Source: an uncultured Bdellovibrionales bacterium
GTDB taxonomy: Bacteria > Patescibacteriota > Minisyncoccia > Moranbacterales > UBA1568
Assembly (NCBI GenBank): GCA_964444815.1
Contig: CAYUIR010000001.1
Span: 78,031 to 142,030, forward strand
Direction: 5' to 3'
Length of the DNA stretch: 64,000 bases
Part shown: positions 17,434 through 38,364 of the stretch, in pieces
Position numbering within the stretch: position 1 is the stretch's first letter
How the letters are laid out: each line of letters starts with the position of its first letter
Made by a program: the position numbers and the translations under genes
The notes under the pieces: generated by a model
The model's database searches: none
Seen by the model: only the letters and a program-made list of their open reading frames with translations
Told to the model about the DNA's origin: nothing

Positions 17434-18345
17434 CTACTCGATAGCGTCAAGGTTGATATCGAGCGCTGTGTGGAGCACCGACTGGGTCGAGATGCAGACG
17501 GTATTTCCGCCTTTCTTTTTGGCGCGGTACATGGCCTCATCGGCTAGGCTCATCAGCCTGCTCAGAGTCACTGCGATATCGGACCCCGGCTCAATACTGC
17601 CGTCCATGATGCCGATGGAAGCAGTTACCTGTGGCTTACCTTCGATGAGCTGGAAGCGCCCATCCTGAGACATCTGCATGAGGAGCCGCTGTGCGCGTTC
17701 GCTGGCAAATGATGCATTCGCATTGAATGCCGCTAGCACGAACTCATCTCCACCTCGTCGACCAATGAGGTCTGTTCCCCGAGGGAAGCATTCACGAACG
17801 AGCTGGGCAAAGGCACACAGCACGCGATCGCCACCATCGTGTCCCTCGCTATCGTTGTAGATCTTGAAACCATCGAGGTCCACGTAAAGGACTGAGACAT
17901 CCGCGGTCGACTGAGGGTATGACGCTCGGAGCTGGTTCTGAGCCTCGGCGAAAAAGAACTCTTCGAATCCAGAGCGACTCAGAAGGCCCGTCAAAGGGTC
18001 TCTCGTTGAGCGTTCTTCGGCCAACCTGAGAGCGTTTGCAAGAGACGCTACCTGAGGCCGGAGACGTTTGATTTCCTGCTGTGCCTGATCGAGCTCGCTG
18101 ATCAGTCCCTCGAAGGTGTGTGCGCCGGTCTCCGTGGCCGCAGCCTCGTTGTGCCTCATCGTTTCAATACCCGCAAGGAGCGCCTTGTTCGCTTCCTCTA
18201 GCTTGCTGAGCTTATCTTCCAGAGCTTTCTCCGTCATCGCGTGTCGCTCCTCCGCTCTTGTGGCGGCGACACGGGCAATCCAGAGAAGGACAGTCAGAAG
18301 CAGAACGAGCACGCCGAGAAGCATGCTGGCGACAAAATAATCCAT
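17434..18345 (-). CDS. membrane-anchored diguanylate cyclase (TM + coiled coil + GGDEF)
   Basis: N-terminal TM helix, coiled coil, then LLSRSGFEE...VLYVDLDGFKIYNDSEGHDGGDRVL...RGTDLIGRRGGDEFVL. The RxxD I-site lies 5 residues before GGDEF. Confidence 0.85.
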   Translation of the reverse strand: MDYFVASMLLGVLVLLLTVLLWIARVAATRAEERHAMTEKALEDKLSKLEEANKALLAGIETMRHNEAAATETGAHTFEGLISELDQAQQEIKRLRPQVASLANALRLAEERSTRDPLTGLLSRSGFEEFFFAEAQNQLRASYPQSTADVSVLYVDLDGFKIYNDSEGHDGGDRVLCAFAQLVRECFPRGTDLIGRRGGDEFVLAAFNANASFASERAQRLLMQMSQDGRFQLIEGKPQVTASIGIMDGSIEPGSDIAVTLSRLMSLADEAMYRAKKKGGNTVCISTQSVLHTALDINLDAIE

Positions 18346-18511
18346 GGATGGTCCCCTTTTGGGATGTTGGGTTGGTGGGCTGGGTTGGAAAAGGACAACG
18401 TTTTATTCTGGCATGGAATCGATGCTTTGTCAAGGTTACGCGACCAGGTTTTCTTGATAAGATATGAGTAGCTTTAGACCTTATTTGGCCCATCCTTACT
18501 TCATCCCTCCT

Positions 18512-19669
18512 ATGCGTATCTCCTATTCGAGTGTCGGCACGTACCAGACCTGTCCACTCAAGTACAAGTATCAGCACGTCGACCGAATCCCTGAGCCCAA
18601 GAGCAAGGAGGCTGTCTTTGGGACACTCGTCCATGCGGTCATGAAGTATATCCACACCCCTGCCCTGCTCTCACCCACGGTCGAGCAAGCACTCGACTAT
18701 TTCGCCAAGGGTTGGAACAGCGAAGTCTACGAAGATGAACTCGAGGAGCGAGCGGCATTCTCGCAGGGTGTCACTATCATCCAGGACTATCTCTCACGGA
18801 ACAAGCCGAGCGACTACACGATTGTTGATCTCGAGAGTCGGTTCGCTATCGAGATAGGTGATGAAGTCTCGGGCAAGCATATCGTCTCTGGGATCATCGA
18901 CCGGATTGACCGGACCAAGGATGGTTATGAAATCATTGATTACAAAACGACACGCAAGATGCCGAGTCAGGACAAAGTCGACAATGACCTCCAGCTCTCT
19001 ATTTACCTCAAGGCCTTTCTTGCTCGCTACCCCAAAGAAATTGCCAATCTCGATAAAATAACCGTCAGTCTCTACTATTTGAAGCACGGGGTCAAGCTCT
19101 CAAGTACTCGGACGCGGGAACAGCTCGACCGCGTGGATGAGACGTTCCTCGGTGTGATCAAGTCTATCGAGGAGGCCAAATTTGAACCGATTCTCTCGCC
19201 CTTGTGTGACTGGTGTGGCTACCAGAAAATTTGTCCCCTTTGGAAGCACAAATTTGCTGAGACACGTCGAGTTGAAACGGAGGATGTGAAGCAGGCGGTC
19301 GCAGAATACCTCGATCTCAAGGGAAAGCTCTCGGAAGAAAAATTGCGTCTGGGGAAACTTCAGTCGCTCATTCTGGAGTATATGGAACAAGAAGGTGTGG
19401 ACCGAGTCTTTGACGAAGCCGGCATCATTGGCAAATCAATGCGCAAGACCTACAAATACGATGCCGAGAAGCTCCGTGCCGTCCTCGAACCGCTCGACAA
19501 GTGGGAATCAGTACTCAAAGTTGATGGTATCGCCCTCCGTACTATCCTCGCTACCCTCCCCTCCTCGACCCAAGACGAGGTCGAAATGGCCAAGGTGCTC
19601 GACAAGGAAAGTACTAGTCTGACGGTCAAGAGAAACAAAATAGAGGTTGATGACGAGCTCAGCCTCTAG
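18512..19669 (+). CDS. PD-(D/E)XK nuclease (RecB/Cas4-like, Fe-S cysteines) with C-terminal extension
   Basis: YSSVGTYQTCPLKYKY, GTLVHAVM, IIDRIDR...YEIIDYKT, CDWCGYQKICPLW. Start set at ATG 18512. Confidence 0.7.
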   Translation: MRISYSSVGTYQTCPLKYKYQHVDRIPEPKSKEAVFGTLVHAVMKYIHTPALLSPTVEQALDYFAKGWNSEVYEDELEERAAFSQGVTIIQDYLSRNKPSDYTIVDLESRFAIEIGDEVSGKHIVSGIIDRIDRTKDGYEIIDYKTTRKMPSQDKVDNDLQLSIYLKAFLARYPKEIANLDKITVSLYYLKHGVKLSSTRTREQLDRVDETFLGVIKSIEEAKFEPILSPLCDWCGYQKICPLWKHKFAETRRVETEDVKQAVAEYLDLKGKLSEEKLRLGKLQSLILEYMEQEGVDRVFDEAGIIGKSMRKTYKYDAEKLRAVLEPLDKWESVLKVDGIALRTILATLPSSTQDEVEMAKVLDKESTSLTVKRNKIEVDDELSL

Positions 19670-33627: not shown

Positions 33628-34149
33628 TTAAATTTTCTCTTTTAGAATTTTGTTGATGAACTCTAGCTTTCTTCGATAATATTCTCGCGTTGATAGGCCG
33701 TTGCCAGACTCTTTCAATCTTCTGTATTCTTCCAGCTTGGCTGGGTCGCTTCGCAGGATAGTCTCAAATTTTACCAAGTTTTTCCAGTCGACACTCTCTT
33801 CATTGATCGGGAAAATGTCGATATGTTTGCCGTTTTCCTCTGTAACAAACCGGGCTCGTTTCAGAGGGTAGAAACTTCTGGGCTCACCAAAGCGTGACTT
33901 CAAAGCCTCGACTAACGCTTCAAATCTCGCTGGACTTACTGGGAGGTACACATCAATTTCGTCCTGACCAGATATACCGAGACTCGTCGCGCCATGATGC
34001 TCTATCCTGACATCCTGTCCCAAAGCCTCCTGTATCTTGGCTCTTACCCTTTGAAACTTCTCTTCCGCCGTAATATCAAATGGAACTATCGTGATAGTTT
34101 TGATATCCGATAGGCGTGCAATCCACTTTTCCTGTTCAGGTGTTAACAT
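33628..34149 (-). CDS. GrpB-like nucleotidyltransferase-fold protein
   Basis: IEHHGATSLGISGQDEIDVYLPV...HIDIFP pattern recalled from the GrpB family. The start overlaps the upstream stop (TAATG). Confidence 0.6.
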   Translation of the reverse strand: MLTPEQEKWIARLSDIKTITIVPFDITAEEKFQRVRAKIQEALGQDVRIEHHGATSLGISGQDEIDVYLPVSPARFEALVEALKSRFGEPRSFYPLKRARFVTEENGKHIDIFPINEESVDWKNLVKFETILRSDPAKLEEYRRLKESGNGLSTREYYRRKLEFINKILKEKI

Positions 34150-34439
34150 TATTTACTTTTTCTAAGCTTCACTTCTAGAATAAGTGCTGAACCAATAAAG
34201 AGTATGAAGTCAAAAAGAAGCTTAGCTACTGAAAAGCCATACTCTTTTTCAAAAGTGTAGGCACCTATGTAGACTTCATTCGGACCTTCCCAAATAAATG
34301 GGAGCGGAAAACCCACTATTACTTTTGGTGAGTCTGCAGTAAGCATAAGAGGAATTAGCTGCAAAGTTAGCCCGATGAGTATTGTGACAATCAATAGAAA
34401 GAGTTTACTTGGTCTCATAGAACTATGGCCTCTCACCAT
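34149..34439 (-). CDS. small membrane protein (96 aa, 3 TM)
   Basis: Hydrophobic helices. Coupled to the GrpB-like gene by a 1-nt overlap. AT-rich. Confidence 0.5.
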   Translation of the reverse strand: MVRGHSSMRPSKLFLLIVTILIGLTLQLIPLMLTADSPKVIVGFPLPFIWEGPNEVYIGAYTFEKEYGFSVAKLLFDFILFIGSALILEVKLRKSK

Positions 34440-34476
34440 TCTTGTTGGCGATAGAGAGGATGAAGTTTATATTAAG

Positions 34477-35025
34477 CTAAGCAATAGTTATAAGCTGAAC
34501 TCCGGCTGGAATTTTTGCTTCTACAATCTCATGAACAAGGCCTATGTTCTTCGCTTCTTCTGAGGAGATAATCCCCCCTTTTCTCATTAAGTCATCAATT
34601 ACTTTATAATCAATCCCGGTAAAGTCACTAACATTCTTTGCGATGTTCTCTCTGTCTCGTCTAAGAGTAGCCAATCTTTCACCTAACTGCTCTTCAGTTA
34701 AGCTGGACTGCCCGAAGTTTGCCATGACCCCGTGAAATAAAAAGGATGAGTTTTTCTGAGCGAGACGCTTAGTGCCAGCAGAAAATATCACGCTTGCAAT
34801 TGAATCAATTTGTCCAACATTATGGACATTAATTGGTATCGGCGAAGACTTGATAAGAGTCGCAATATTCATACCATCAAAAACGCTTCCACCGGGAGAC
34901 GAGATAAGAATATTAATTTCAGTAAATTGGCTATTGATAGCAGTTGTAATTGCACCAAGAAGCTGTCCAGCAGACTGAGAGTTTACGCCAGCCTGAAAAA
35001 TTATATATAGTTGCTTCATATCCAT
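34477..35025 (-). CDS. ClpP-fold serine protease-like protein (stand-alone)
   Basis: ISSPGGSVFDG, GQIDSIASVIF (compare ClpP GQAASMG), FLFHGV (compare MIHQP), EEAKNIGLVHEIV (compare EA..YGL.D). Confidence 0.65.
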   Translation of the reverse strand: MDMKQLYIIFQAGVNSQSAGQLLGAITTAINSQFTEINILISSPGGSVFDGMNIATLIKSSPIPINVHNVGQIDSIASVIFSAGTKRLAQKNSSFLFHGVMANFGQSSLTEEQLGERLATLRRDRENIAKNVSDFTGIDYKVIDDLMRKGGIISSEEAKNIGLVHEIVEAKIPAGVQLITIA

Positions 35026-35690
35026 TATTGCTTAGCTATCTTTCTAATTACATCTACTGCCGGAGAATTATAAATAAATTCTACCTGCGAACTTACCTCC
35101 GTAAGAATACTGTGTGCATTTCCAGTTGCCGTAAACTCGATGTGGATCTGTCCGGGTTGTGGCATGGGTTGACCGGGGACATTCATTGCTTGTAAACCAG
35201 GTTGAACAATAACTGGTGCGCTTGTTGTAGACTGAACTGGAGAAATCTTCTGATCTGCAATTCTTCTAATCAAATAGTCAAGAAACTCTACACTGGAATA
35301 GAATCGACTTATAGTATCTGCTCCGGTTTCCTCAAGTTCTGAGATGAACAAATGTATACTATTGTTCCAACTATTTGTTGGTAAAAGGGTGTGTGATAAT
35401 CGATAGGTATGGTTATTTAATCTGGCTTCTCTAATCTTTTGTTCCGCACTACGTATTTCTTGGAGGATGAGACTAGCAATATCGCGTTTCTGGTCCTGCT
35501 TTTGTTTCAAATACAAATAGTAAGCAACAAATGCTGTAAAAAGAGTTAGGACAGCCACGAAAAACTGAGAATTAAGTGCCAACCAAACTTTTGGAAAGTT
35601 TTCAATTACGGCACTTAATATAAAGATTGCCCCAGCTAATAGCGCCGATGAAGTAACTACATATGTTGCAATGTTAAATACTTTTTTCAT
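35025..35690 (-). CDS. 2-TM membrane protein with helical/Pro-Gln-rich ectodomain
   Basis: 221 aa, two N-terminal TM helices. The stop overlaps the ClpP-like ATG by 1 nt. Confidence 0.5.
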   Translation of the reverse strand: MKKVFNIATYVVTSSALLAGAIFILSAVIENFPKVWLALNSQFFVAVLTLFTAFVAYYLYLKQKQDQKRDIASLILQEIRSAEQKIREARLNNHTYRLSHTLLPTNSWNNSIHLFISELEETGADTISRFYSSVEFLDYLIRRIADQKISPVQSTTSAPVIVQPGLQAMNVPGQPMPQPGQIHIEFTATGNAHSILTEVSSQVEFIYNSPAVDVIRKIAKQ

Positions 35691-35716
35691 ACAGTTTAGT
35701 ATTTAGTTAATTATAT

Positions 35717-35775
35717 AAAAGCGGGGCGAAATGCCCCGCTTTTATGCTACTCTTATTTCTTTTCTTCTTCAACTT
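35717..35775 (-). repeat. copy r1 of the dnaK 3' end + terminator repeat
   Basis: AAAAGCGGGGC-GAAAT-GCCCCGCTTTTATGCTAC-TCTTATTTC..., also serving as terminator of the 217-aa gene. Confidence 0.8.
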
Positions 35776-36406
35776 TGCTTTCAGGCGCCCCGTCTGAAGC
35801 CGAGGTAGGCTCAGATTGTACTACTTCTGAAAGCTGTGGTCTTGATGGCACATATGGGGATAAGAGATTCTCACTCCCCTTATGTTCCGGCGACAATTGA
35901 GTGAGATTCTTAGGTTCACCGTTCATATTATTAAAGTTAATGGCAGAAAAGATAAGAATTGAAACAAGGGCGAAAATAAATGTCGATATAGTTATATAGT
36001 TTGTTCTTGTGATACTTTTACCGTACTTCCGTGGAGGAATAAACCCAACAATACTACTACTATTCATAAACATCCGGTCCATGGGAGAGATATCTGCATA
36101 CCACTTGTCTAACGATAGAATTTGATCTTCACTTTGCCAAGTGCTCAACAGATACCCAATTATCTGTGATACTATTGAAATGCTCAGTAGTATCCAAGAA
36201 ATAAAGAGAAGTGATGTGAAATCAAAATGGAGATTCGTATTAAATACGACATTAACAGAGAGAACAAAAACACCTGTAACTAGGTAGAGCAACATCTTAT
36301 CAAGAGCGTTTTGAGAAGAAAGATGATGTGTACGGGCCTGCTCTCTAGTTCTGTTGTAATAATCTTGAGCCTCTTCAAAACTTAAGTTTGGCATATGTTT
36401 ATCCAA
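35753..36406 (-). CDS. polytopic membrane protein (217 aa)
   Basis: 3-4 TM helices and a C-terminal acidic/Ser-rich tail ending EEEKK. AT-rich. Confidence 0.5.
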   Translation of the reverse strand: MDKHMPNLSFEEAQDYYNRTREQARTHHLSSQNALDKMLLYLVTGVFVLSVNVVFNTNLHFDFTSLLFISWILLSISIVSQIIGYLLSTWQSEDQILSLDKWYADISPMDRMFMNSSSIVGFIPPRKYGKSITRTNYITISTFIFALVSILIFSAINFNNMNGEPKNLTQLSPEHKGSENLLSPYVPSRPQLSEVVQSEPTSASDGAPESKVEEEKK

Positions 36407-36463
36407 AAGCGGGGCATTTCGCCCCGCTTTTATGCTACATCTTATTTTTTCTCTTCGCTAGGC
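36405..36463 (-). repeat. copy r2: dnaK terminator + last dnaK codons
   Basis: AAAAGCGGGGC-ATTTC-GCCCCGCTTTTATGCTAC-ATCTTATTTT. The loop is the reverse complement of the r1 loop. Confidence 0.8.
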
Positions 36464-38364
36464 TTTTCCTCTGCAGGCTCGGTCTCGGCGTCCTTCGGAG
36501 CATCAGCCGTACCCTCGGCCTTAGCTTCACCGGCAGCACCCTGCTTGGCGGCCTCAGCTTCGGAAGTGGCCTTATACAGCTTCTCGCCAATCTTCTGAGC
36601 TGCTTGGGAGAGGACTTCGGTCGCTTTCTTGATAGCGTCGAGGTCGTCACCGTTCTTCACCTTGTTGAGCTCTGTGATGGCATCCTCTACCGGCTTCTTC
36701 TCTTCGGCCGTGATCTTGTCACCGGCGTCTTTCATGGCTTTCTCTGTGGTGTATGAGAGCGTGTCGGCCATGTTGCGAGCTTCGATGAGGGCCTTCTTGT
36801 TCTTGTCTTCTTCGGCGTGGAGCTCGGCATCTTTCTTCATGCGCTCGATTTCGTCTTTCGACAAACCGGTCGATGATTCGATGCGGATGTTTTGGCTCTT
36901 GCCAGTCGCTTTGTCCTTGGCGGACACGGTGAGGATACCAGAGGCATCGATATCAAATGTCACCTCAATCTGTGGCACACCCCGGGGAGCCGGCATGATG
37001 CCATCGAGGATAAACTGACCGAGCGACTTGTTGTCCCCTGCCATCTCGCGCTCACCCTGGAGCACATGGATCTGGACCGACGGCTGATTGTCAGAGGCGG
37101 TCGAGAATACCTGGGAGCGACTGACTGGCACCGTGGTGTTGCGGTCGATGAGCGGGGTACGGACTCCGCCCATGGTCTCGATACCAAATGTGAGCGGAGT
37201 AACATCGAGGAGGAGGACATCTTTGACTGAGCCTTCGAGCACACCACCCTGGATAGCGGCACCGAGAGCGACCACTTCATCCGGGTTCACCGTGATGTTG
37301 GGCTTCTTGCCAAAGAATTTCTCTACTTCGGCGAGGACGAGAGGCATGCGGGTCATACCACCGACCAGGACCACTTCGGAGAGGTCCTTTACATCAATCT
37401 TGGCATCGGCGAGGGCCTTCTTCACTGGTTCAAACGAAGCCTTGACTAAATCCCCGACCAATTCTTCGAGCTTGGCCCGAGAGAGTTTGATGAGAAGGTG
37501 CTTGGGACCAGAGGCATCGGCGGTGATAAACGGCTGGTTGATTTCGGATTCCTGCGCGGTCGAGAGTTCAATCTTGGCCTTTTCAGCGGCTTCCTTGATG
37601 CGCTGGAGGGCGAGTGGGTCCTTGGACAGGTCGAGTCCTTCTTGCTTCTTGAATTCATCGAGGATCCAGTGGATGATGCGCTGGTCAAAGTCGTCACCAC
37701 CGAGATGCGTATCACCATTGGTCGAGCGGACTTCTACGGTGTCTTCGGATACTTCGAGGATAGAGATATCGAACGTCCCACCACCGAGGTCATAGACGGC
37801 GATCTTCTCGTCTTTCTTCTTATTGAAGCCATAGGCGAGAGCAGCAGCCGTCGGCTCGTTGATGATACGACGGACATTGAAGCCAGCGATTTCTCCGGCT
37901 TCCTTAGTCGCCTTGCGCTGTGAGTCATCGAAGTAAGCCGGGACCGTGATGACGGCATCGGTGATTTTCTCCCCGAGCTTTTCCTCAGCATCGGCCTTGA
38001 GCTTGGCCAAGACCATGGCGCTTATCTCCTGTGGGCTATACTCCTTGCCACCCATGACGATCTTGACGCCTTCACCGGCCTGGACCACCTTGTACGGCAG
38101 GGTCTTCATATCACGCTGGGCATCTTCGTCACTAAAGTGTCGTCCGATGAGACGCTTGACCGAGAAGAGTGTATTCTCTGGGTTGGTCACACTCTGACGC
38201 TTGGCGAGGAGCCCCACCAGACGCTCACCAGTTTTTGACACGGCGATCATCGACGGAGTCGTGCGATTACCTTCTTTGTTCTCGATAATGGTCGGGGTCC
38301 CACCCTCCACGAATGCCATGGCAGAGTTGGTTGTCCCGAGATCGATTCCTAATATCTTGGCCAT
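36442..38364 (-). CDS. dnaK: molecular chaperone DnaK (Hsp70)
   Basis: [27 protein letters not shown], full-length 640 aa. Confidence 0.98.

Follow-up and report, generated by a model that had tools for sequence, protein, structure and literature searches.

In Escherichia coli, the integrative elements e14 and phage 21 are found in icd and bring with them a substitute 3' end of the target gene. The attC sites of integrons measure 57-141 bp and possess R''-L''…L'-R' cores (RYYYAAC/GTTRRRY) as well as extrahelical bases, and the 'minute inversions' of chloroplasts belong to the same class of events as hairpin-loop inversions. Patescibacteria, or candidate phyla radiation (CPR) bacteria, have tiny genomes with few recognisable mobile elements, and their gain of accessory genes is poorly understood. 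Inversion of a hairpin loop by template switching is a documented mutation class (PMC8794818; for quasipalindromes, PMC7202029), e14 and icd are discussed in PMC6379469, and promoter-early stem-loop (PeSL) cassettes have been described in T4-type phages (Arbiol et al. 2010, PMC2839356; Comeau et al. 2014, PMC4122927). Here we analyse a 64-kb stretch of a Candidatus Moranbacteria (CPR/Patescibacteria) chromosome, referred to below as the window, in which the 3' end of dnaK and its predicted terminator stand twice around a single open reading frame (ORF), and we compare it with related loci (~110 in total, given L-numbers).

Two copies of the dnaK end bracket a single ORF

A first-pass annotation of the window had placed two direct copies of a short segment at the end of dnaK, one on either side of a single ORF, and repeat comparison bore this out. 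On the plus strand, positions 35717-35743 read AAAAGCGGGGC-GAAAT-GCCCCGCTTTT and positions 36405-36431 read AAAAGCGGGGC-ATTTC-GCCCCGCTTTT; each hairpin is followed by ATGCTAC and then by (A)TCTTATTT..., the reverse complement of a stop and K/E codons. The genes lie on the minus strand, and in gene sense the loop is GAAAT in the dnaK-proximal copy (dnaK …GAAGAGAAAAAATAA GATGTAGCAT AAAAGCGGGGC-GAAAT-GCCCCGCTTTT GGATAAACAT ATG…) and ATTTC in the distal copy (ORF …GAAGAAAAGAAATAA GAGTAGCAT AAAAGCGGGGC-ATTTC-GCCCCGCTTTT ATATAA…). The last dnaK codons, the stop, the GTAGCAT spacer and the 11-5-11 terminator hairpin are together referred to as the module. Because the two loops are exact reverse complements between perfect inverted-repeat arms, the 29-nt hairpins form a perfect inverted repeat while their flanks are direct repeats, just as the annotation had described them.

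The stem pattern is present in 2 copies in the 64 kb, both at the dnaK locus, versus 0.01 expected. Similarity outside the hairpin, also claimed by the annotation, proved reproducible, since the alignment of the 45-nt flank outside the palindrome was beaten by only 1.5e-4 of random 45-mers from the window and 3.5e-4 of purine-rich 45-mers. A chance origin of the repeat can be excluded. Three loci from different samples (L001-L003) possess the same two copies in the same loop states as the window, which excludes an assembly artefact. A repetitive extragenic palindrome or bacterial interspersed mosaic element (REP/BIME), or any other dispersed palindromic repeat, was likewise rejected, both copies in the 64 kb being at the one locus.

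The gene that supplies the module, dnaK (36442..38364, minus strand; 640 aa), was recognised from the ORF list, its Moranbacteria homologues and its GrpE, Hsp20 and HrcA neighbours. It is the last gene of an hrcA-grpE-hsp20-dnaK heat-shock cluster, which cysS, corA and dnaB adjoin according to the domain scan, and the closest relatives of its product found by homologue search (84-100% identical) come from metagenome-assembled genomes of Moranbacteria.

The RNA folds of the two hairpins are equally strong. The proximal hairpin (36405..36431, minus strand) has an 11-bp stem and the loop GAAAU in the mRNA sense (36416-36420), which is the flipped state, and folds at -22.6 kcal/mol (z = -4.9). The distal hairpin (35715..35745, minus strand) has a 13-bp stem that includes A-U pairs, the loop AUUUC in the mRNA sense (35728-35732), which is the common state, and a U-rich tract after it, and folds at -22.4 kcal/mol (z = -6.0). 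With stems of 11-13 bp containing 7 G-C pairs, a distance of 10-11 nt past the stops, and UUUU after both hairpins (UUUUAUAUAAUU in the distal copy, UUUUGGAU in the proximal), they are canonical predicted intrinsic (Rho-independent) terminators.

An empty site and the origin of the two copies

Three relatives whose DnaK is 98% identical to that of the window (L090-92) possess dnaK, a single hairpin and then genes for a 221-aa membrane protein and a ClpP-like protease, with no cassette between them. An empty site with one hairpin is what the first-pass annotation had proposed to look for downstream of dnaK in relatives. In blastn comparisons, positions 8887-8959 of L090 (73 bp) matched the window twice, at 36477-36405 and at 35789-35717, while window positions 35790-36404 were without counterpart in L090. 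The window thus displays an insertion polymorphism relative to a collinear close relative that has one repeat copy and no insert. The duplication that the annotation had reported is therefore upheld, albeit not its size of ~55 nt, the segment measuring 73 bp against the single site of the relative. The cassette-specific DNA (35790..36404, minus strand), defined by this blastn gap, consists of a 10-nt leader and the ORF body.

Which of the two copies is the older one follows from their sequences. The dnaK end of L090 (…DAETEAPESKVEEEKK GAGTAGCAT…ATTTC…TTTTATA, encoding …APESKVEEEKK) is the same sequence that closes the cassette ORF of the window, identifying the distal copy as the ancestral dnaK end. 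This distal module (35717..35789, minus strand), which we designate Y-type, comprises the stop, spacer GAGTAGCAT and hairpin; beyond its alignment to L090 8887-8959 it continues collinearly into the 221-aa gene, and the same type forms the single end in L090 and the distal end in L095. The proximal module (36405..36477, minus strand), designated X-type, comprises the last 11 dnaK codons, the stop (36442-36444), spacer GATGTAGCAT and hairpin, and aligns to the same L090 positions. It represents a different dnaK-end allele, being near-identical, apart from the loop, to the sole dnaK end in L093/94 and in L102/103. Judged from these alignments, the dnaK gene of the window has received a replacement end of another allelic type.

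The cassette ORF (35753..36394, minus strand) encodes 213 aa from an ATG at 36394. The gene reported in the first-pass annotation is present, but its length of 217 aa is less likely to be correct, since this requires a TTG at 36406 that overlaps the hairpin, whereas the 213-aa product is on record (P0121) in four other assemblies from other samples. In an exact-product look-up, neither the 217-aa product nor the window DnaK had a match, while the 213-aa product did.

The annotation was also correct in stating that the bracketed gene ends in repeated sequence. Homology to dnaK tails reaches 60 nt into the cassette ORF, and the last 19 codons and stop of the ORF (35753..35812, minus strand; …EPTSASDGAPESKVEEEKK*) form a captured, chimeric DnaK C-terminal tail when aligned to the dnaK tails of relatives. 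Overall, about 105 nt at the 3' end of the ORF were attributed to dnaK. The first part of the tail, GAGCCTACCTCGGCTTCAGACGGG, matches the dnaK tails of L100 and L098 at 23/24 positions, and the 37 nt after it match the L090 dnaK end at 35/37; the switch between alleles falls near a short patch, GC(T/G)CCTGA, that is nearly common to both. Such a chimera is the outcome that would be expected of a crossover between a cassette-borne and a resident tail. Insertion of a cassette at the dnaK 3' end, as the annotation had proposed, thus stands, but its placement at the terminator needs mending: the insertion lies inside the 3' coding tail, not behind the terminator.

The dnaK end is a recurrent site of insertion in relatives

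We found duplicated modules around other ORFs at the same position. In L095/96 (DnaK 97% identical), an unrelated 297-aa membrane ORF stands between dnaK and a DUF6941 gene that lies directly behind dnaK in L093. The L095 modules are of the same two types as those of the window, with loop GAAAT in the proximal and ATTTC in the distal copy. The last ~31 codons of the L095 ORF are again DnaK tail, L093-type over the first part (52/55) and L090-type thereafter (51/54), and the duplication is longer (~140 bp, versus 73 bp in the window). In L098 (DnaK 92% identical) there is a two-cassette array, dnaK-m1-357aa-m2-179aa-m3, in which m1 has loop ATAAC, m2 has loop GTTAT, and the outermost module, m3, is decayed (TAA changed to TTA, with changes in the stem and the A-tract).

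Close homologues of the 213-aa protein form only two clusters (44% identity), and both are encoded directly behind dnaK between duplicated modules. The lineages that possess them (L084-88 and L089) each have their own lineage-specific hairpin, different from that of the window. In L084-88 (DnaK 87% identical), AAATAAGGAGTATACTAAGAGCGGAGGTTTTTCCTCCGCTCT is present twice, the repeat measuring 42 nt at 100% identity in L086, while in L089 it measures ~58 nt with a few mismatches and indels. Among 80 species-representative dnaK loci, a duplicated dnaK end was detected in one, L006 (= L086), which is the carrier of the homologue.

The annotation had held that its reading would fall if relatives everywhere showed the two copies with unrelated genes between them, as in a generic terminator family. 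Taken literally, such relatives exist, L095 and L098 being examples, but the inference to a generic family fails because the module is confined to the dnaK end; duplicated modules around unrelated ORFs instead argue for a recurrent cassette hotspot at this position. The core GTAGCATAAAAGCGGGGC, searched with ≤3 mismatches, was detected only at dnaK and cassette ends in the ~110 loci, plus two unrelated chance matches, the loop and arm following the core being read by eye. A metagenome scan for the module returned only two loci, L097 and L098. A DnaK-tail bait, made as a synthetic concatenate of tail variants, recovered only three already known cassette proteins and no new cassettes, and a check of the ends of other low-GC genes in the window revealed no decayed modules, but just an unrelated terminator behind grpB.

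The same-strand gene that starts 9-30 nt past the dnaK hairpin differs in nearly every close relative, encoding the 221-aa protein, a DUF6941 protein, products of 112 aa, 470 aa or 97 aa, or a DUF4145 protein, among others. The variable stretch gives way to a conserved right flank with CutA1, DM13, DUF3467 and DUF1189. On this gene order, the dnaK end is evidently a small recurrent gene-insertion hotspot in the clade. The DnaK C-termini themselves (P0001-P0060) are highly mosaic over the last 8-30 residues past a conserved …PKDAETEP motif, and the end types …EEKPSEEKK, …APESKVEEEKK and …DGK recur on different backbones, which suggests frequent tail recombination.

Several further features of these loci were observed. 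Between the dnaK stop and m1 of L098 lies a 47-nt stretch (L098:3729-3776; …GACGGGAAATAA, 'DGK*') corresponding to a second DnaK tail, which looks like the scar of an earlier end replacement. The 357-aa cassette ORF of L098 (L098:3827-4900) has an HExxH motif (…IQHELIHAGQ…) and no Pfam match, and its product may be a metalloprotease. Genes in the variable region include one for a KAP NTPase-like protein (L101:6823-8070, a weak match) and one for a DUF4145 protein (L100:6034-6642); such domains may point to defence or abortive infection. A conserved, perfect AT-rich palindrome of 17-20 bp, ATGTA(T/C)CATAATTCCAC-GGCC-GTGGAATTATG(A/G)TACAT, is present in the variable region at L099:4567-4604, just past a glyoxalase gene and ~2 kb upstream of YunG/CutA1, and at L101:9167-9210, ~330 nt past CutA1. 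A conserved 109-aa ORF occupies the far end of the variable region on the opposite strand (window:33240-33569, plus strand; L098:7114-7443, minus strand).

Inversion of the hairpin loop

The first-pass annotation had also proposed that the loop was flipped following insertion. This order of events is not required by the data: the GAAAT allele is found upstream of the unrelated cassette of L095 and at the single-copy site of L099, so that the flip need not postdate the insertion, and the flipped loop may have arrived with the incoming DNA. Single-copy sites with ATTTC were found in six lineages (L090-92, L093/94, L005, L097, L101 and L102/103), and one with GAAAT in L099. The same tail type is found with either loop, as in L097 versus L099 and in L093/L102 versus the window, and in L098 a diverged loop is present in exact reverse complement, ATAAC in m1 and GTTAT in m2. 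Together, the tail types found with either loop and the L098 pair require at least three inversions within this small clade.

The stems are invariant across loop states. The window, L095 and L099 versus L097 (GAAAT/ATTTC), together with L098 (ATAAC/GTTAT), represent minute inversions of a hairpin loop. We therefore regard the loop flip as a recurrent minute inversion between perfect inverted-repeat arms, neutral for the stability of the hairpin, and infer that it arises by template switching or by recombination within the palindrome. In the two occupied sites with the other hairpin type (L086 and L089), the loops are direct.

Cassette protein and surrounding genes

The ATG of the cassette lies 10 nt past the proximal hairpin, and no sigma-70-like promoter was found on the gene strand from the module to the ATG, although CPR promoters may differ. 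Given the short gap and no detected consensus promoter, the cassette is probably expressed by read-through from the heat-shock operon. A CIRCE-like inverted repeat (controlling inverted repeat of chaperone expression; TTAGCACTC-N9-GAGTGCTAA type) is present at the start of hrcA in L086 (2383-2407) and L004 (3689-3721), in keeping with regulation by HrcA of the operon whose transcription would run on into the cassettes. In two loci (L099:64-981 and L101:3061-3963), GrpE (300-305 aa) carries a NUDIX domain fused at its N-terminus.

In the 213-aa protein, about three long hydrophobic helices are followed by a charged tail that is disordered. Its AlphaFold2 (AF2) model, of low confidence (predicted local distance difference test, pLDDT, 57), likewise has three long helices, with residues 159-213 disordered. 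An exhaustive profile search returned 396 distant relatives (E <= 1e-3), small membrane proteins with charged tails that belong to no curated family. When the profile of this wider membrane-protein family was applied to the other 80 dnaK loci, it detected no additional member close to dnaK, and Pfam and PADLOC searches with all cassette proteins and the 221-aa/ClpP-like pair returned nothing beyond the Clp protease domain.

The 221-aa membrane protein and ClpP-like protease (182 aa) are encoded at 34477..35690 on the minus strand and, in L090-92, directly behind dnaK. Positions 34000-36400 of the window, covering the cassette, this pair and a 96-aa ORF, are of low GC content (37-41%, versus ~52%), and the pair, as low in GC as the cassette, may be an older accessory module. 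A PD-(D/E)XK/Cas4-like nuclease (18464-19669) and a GGDEF protein (17434-18345) are encoded ~17 kb from the locus and are unrelated to the finding.

Explanations of the module-ORF-module arrangement

We consider it fairly likely that cassettes carry a copy of the dnaK tail and terminator as portable homology and enter the hypervariable site by homologous recombination. The portable unit would consist, in order, of a short leader, the ORF body, DnaK disordered-tail codons with their stop, and the GTAGCAT spacer with the hairpin. Its 3' part, homologous to the resident dnaK end, would serve as the right-hand arm regardless of the downstream genes, while the left-hand arm could be provided by a second crossover in dnaK or by a circular intermediate formed via the two direct repeats. 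Recombination would set the cassette directly behind dnaK, dnaK would keep a tail, stop and terminator, and the cassette ORF would close in the other copy of the module, yielding the order module-ORF-module. Homologous recombination, as a mechanism suggested by these sequence patterns, would account for the geometry, the differing alleles of the two copies, the chimeric tails, the variable length of the duplication and the array with a decayed outer module.

Several observations weigh against this reading. No donor was identified, and no circular junction was found in the assemblies, where circles cannot show. A sliding-window comparison revealed no mosaic break in the body of dnaK, which is 92-97% identical to L090, L093 and L102 throughout. 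The reading leaves unexplained how the individual ORFs came to be joined to a DnaK tail in the first place. Neighbouring loops are in opposite (flip-flop) states in 3/3 occupied sites with the GCGGGGC hairpin, whereas 1/7 single sites is flipped (Fisher ~0.03, uncorrected for phylogeny, the lineages being non-independent), a hint that flipping and occupancy are connected, which would not be expected under plain homologous recombination. Finally, the 213-aa family is 44% identical where DnaK is 87% identical, which would also fit old vertical linkage with concerted evolution.

Vertical linkage would mean that the gene stood behind dnaK before the lineages split, that gene conversion homogenised the modules, and that deletion between the direct repeats removed the gene from most relatives. 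It accounts for 44%-identical homologues at the same position in three lineages, for modules that match the local dnaK module and not each other, and for a DnaK-like tail that begins at about the same point (…EP…) in all three, suggesting a single ancient fusion; precise loss between direct repeats would, moreover, be easy. We nevertheless regard it as unlikely, since there are only 3 clusters of the protein versus >100 DnaK clusters at >=84% identity, since unrelated ORFs (297, 357 and 179 aa) share the same architecture, and since the two window copies are different dnaK-end alleles, not homogenised ones, and the tail of the window cassette joins two alleles in a chimera.

Site-specific recombination appears improbable. 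Here the 11-5-11 palindrome would be an attC-like or Xer/dif-like site whose asymmetric spacer sets the orientation and whose recombinase is encoded elsewhere; flip-flop loops would then represent inverted sites or stabilised cassettes. The promoterless single ORFs each followed by a hairpin, the one array, the cassette-specific DNA beginning right past the hairpin and the flip-flop neighbours in every occupied site of the first hairpin type all fit such a scheme. What it fails to fit is a duplication that reaches 40-140 nt into the dnaK coding sequence, with variable and chimeric junctions, or a hairpin that differs by lineage (GCGGGGC versus GAGCGGAGG) and has direct loops in L086 and L089. 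The element is, moreover, a canonical predicted terminator with a U tract, its flipped loop is also found at a single-copy site, and a 5-nt spacer and 27-nt length fit neither attC nor dif. Nor was a recombinase found nearby: the domain scan of 20 non-overlapping window ORFs of >=110 aa (17.4-54.9 kb) and the module-adjacent genes detected none, three long ORFs (50.6-53.8 kb) and several shorter ORFs of the span being outside the scan, and the called genes of the related loci contained none except for rve matches in L084 (faint, ~5 kb downstream) and L085 (weak).

A broader version, to which we give little credence, is that the dnaK module is the landing pad of a dedicated CPR gene-capture platform, integron-like but without a linked integrase. 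An unrecognised hairpin-acting enzyme, or hairpin-primed replication, would operate at the 11-5-11 palindrome, the cassettes would be under heat-shock read-through, and flip-flop loops would be the signature of insertion, a state that would be comparable, by analogy, to flip/flop hairpin transfer.

Local tandem duplication of the dnaK end and downstream DNA, followed by deletions that leave one resident gene and involve no foreign DNA, is highly improbable. Tandem duplication is a common event, and module-gene-module is the geometry of its junctions, but the cassette ORF has no downstream counterpart in relatives with an empty site, the copies are different alleles, a second precise deletion would be required to put the ATG 10 nt past the hairpin, and the unrelated ORFs would require independent repeats of the same outcome. 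A transposon or miniature inverted-repeat transposable element with target duplication was rejected on this geometry as well, the direct repeat being on the same (5') side of both hairpins, as in a tandem duplication, and neither a transposase nor other copies being present at the locus.

A generic terminator family, chance similarity or an assembly artefact, for which it can be said that AAAAGCGGGGC…GCCCCGCTTTT is a typical intrinsic terminator and that the bare hairpin is present in 8 viral contigs (where its flanks are unrelated and the cassette protein has no homologue, hence no phage link), is refuted, and we give it next to no weight, on the copy number, the significant flank similarity, the restriction of the spacer-plus-hairpin core to dnaK and cassette ends bar two chance matches, and the identical structure in four independent assemblies.

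Discussion

With homologous recombination on portable dnaK ends as our preferred explanation, the dnaK locus offers a concrete and recurrent route by which CPR bacteria gain accessory genes, single ORFans riding on the 3' tail and terminator of an essential gene. Since cassettes carry the dnaK tail and terminator, any related genome could take them up behind dnaK by recombination, regardless of its downstream genes, and once there they probably borrow heat-shock-driven transcription. The locus further indicates that unrelated proteins can acquire their C-terminus from a disordered protein tail, and their terminator along with it, and it provides a clean bacterial example of recurrent hairpin-loop inversion. 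If it were true that the flip-flop pattern is tied to the mechanism, an undescribed hairpin-based insertion process would be at work.

As for the known systems, integron cassettes and CALIN arrays (clusters of attC sites lacking integron-integrases) resemble the dnaK locus in their promoterless single ORFs, each followed by a hairpin-forming repeat, with L098 as the corresponding array, and in that new cassettes adjoin a fixed upstream transcription unit. In contrast to attC sites (57-141 nt), the hairpin at dnaK is 27-31 nt long with a perfect stem and, by inspection, without R''/R' cores, and, unlike in an integron, part of the upstream gene's coding sequence is duplicated and the junctions are variable. 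An integron origin was rejected, no core sites being detected by inspection and no IntI among the scanned ORFs, with hrcA, grpE, hsp20 and dnaK upstream.

The loop flips share with template-switch inversions at hairpin loops and quasipalindromes (PMC8794818, PMC7202029) an exact reverse complement of the loop, homoplasy and neutrality for the stem. They differ from them in being seen between two paralogous bacterial terminator copies in one locus, where a 29-nt perfect inverted repeat surrounds a gene.

The likeness to e14 and phage 21 lies in insertion at the 3' end of a conserved gene that is kept intact by an incoming alternative end, with a diverged duplication of the gene end on both sides of the insert. 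While e14 and phage 21 are multi-gene prophages that encode an integrase and have a defined att core, the inserts at dnaK consist of single ORFs lacking a recombinase, and the dnaK end that is displaced now supplies the inserted ORF with its C-terminus and terminator. Integrase-mediated integration of the e14/icd type was rejected, the insert being one ORF without a Pfam domain and the duplication lengths and junctions differing between cassettes.

PeSL cassettes show a comparable arrangement, in that short repeated terminator-stem-loop modules flank single ORFans in hyperplastic regions, and differences between close relatives (insertions, deletions and replacements) are explained by recombination between the modules. 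At dnaK, shuffling of this type distinguishes the window, L095, L098, L086 and L089 from L090, L093 and L102. PeSL modules have a strong promoter, and excised mini-circles exist; at dnaK, no mini-circles were observed in the assemblies, where circles cannot show. In contrast to the PeSL composite of promoter and terminator, the dnaK module consists of the 3' coding tail and predicted terminator of an essential gene, with no promoter detected, and it is situated in a bacterial (CPR) chromosome at one site only. What is new relative to all of these systems is a recurrent hotspot at the end of dnaK in which the tail and terminator of an essential gene are the shuffling module and are reused by the inserted ORFs.

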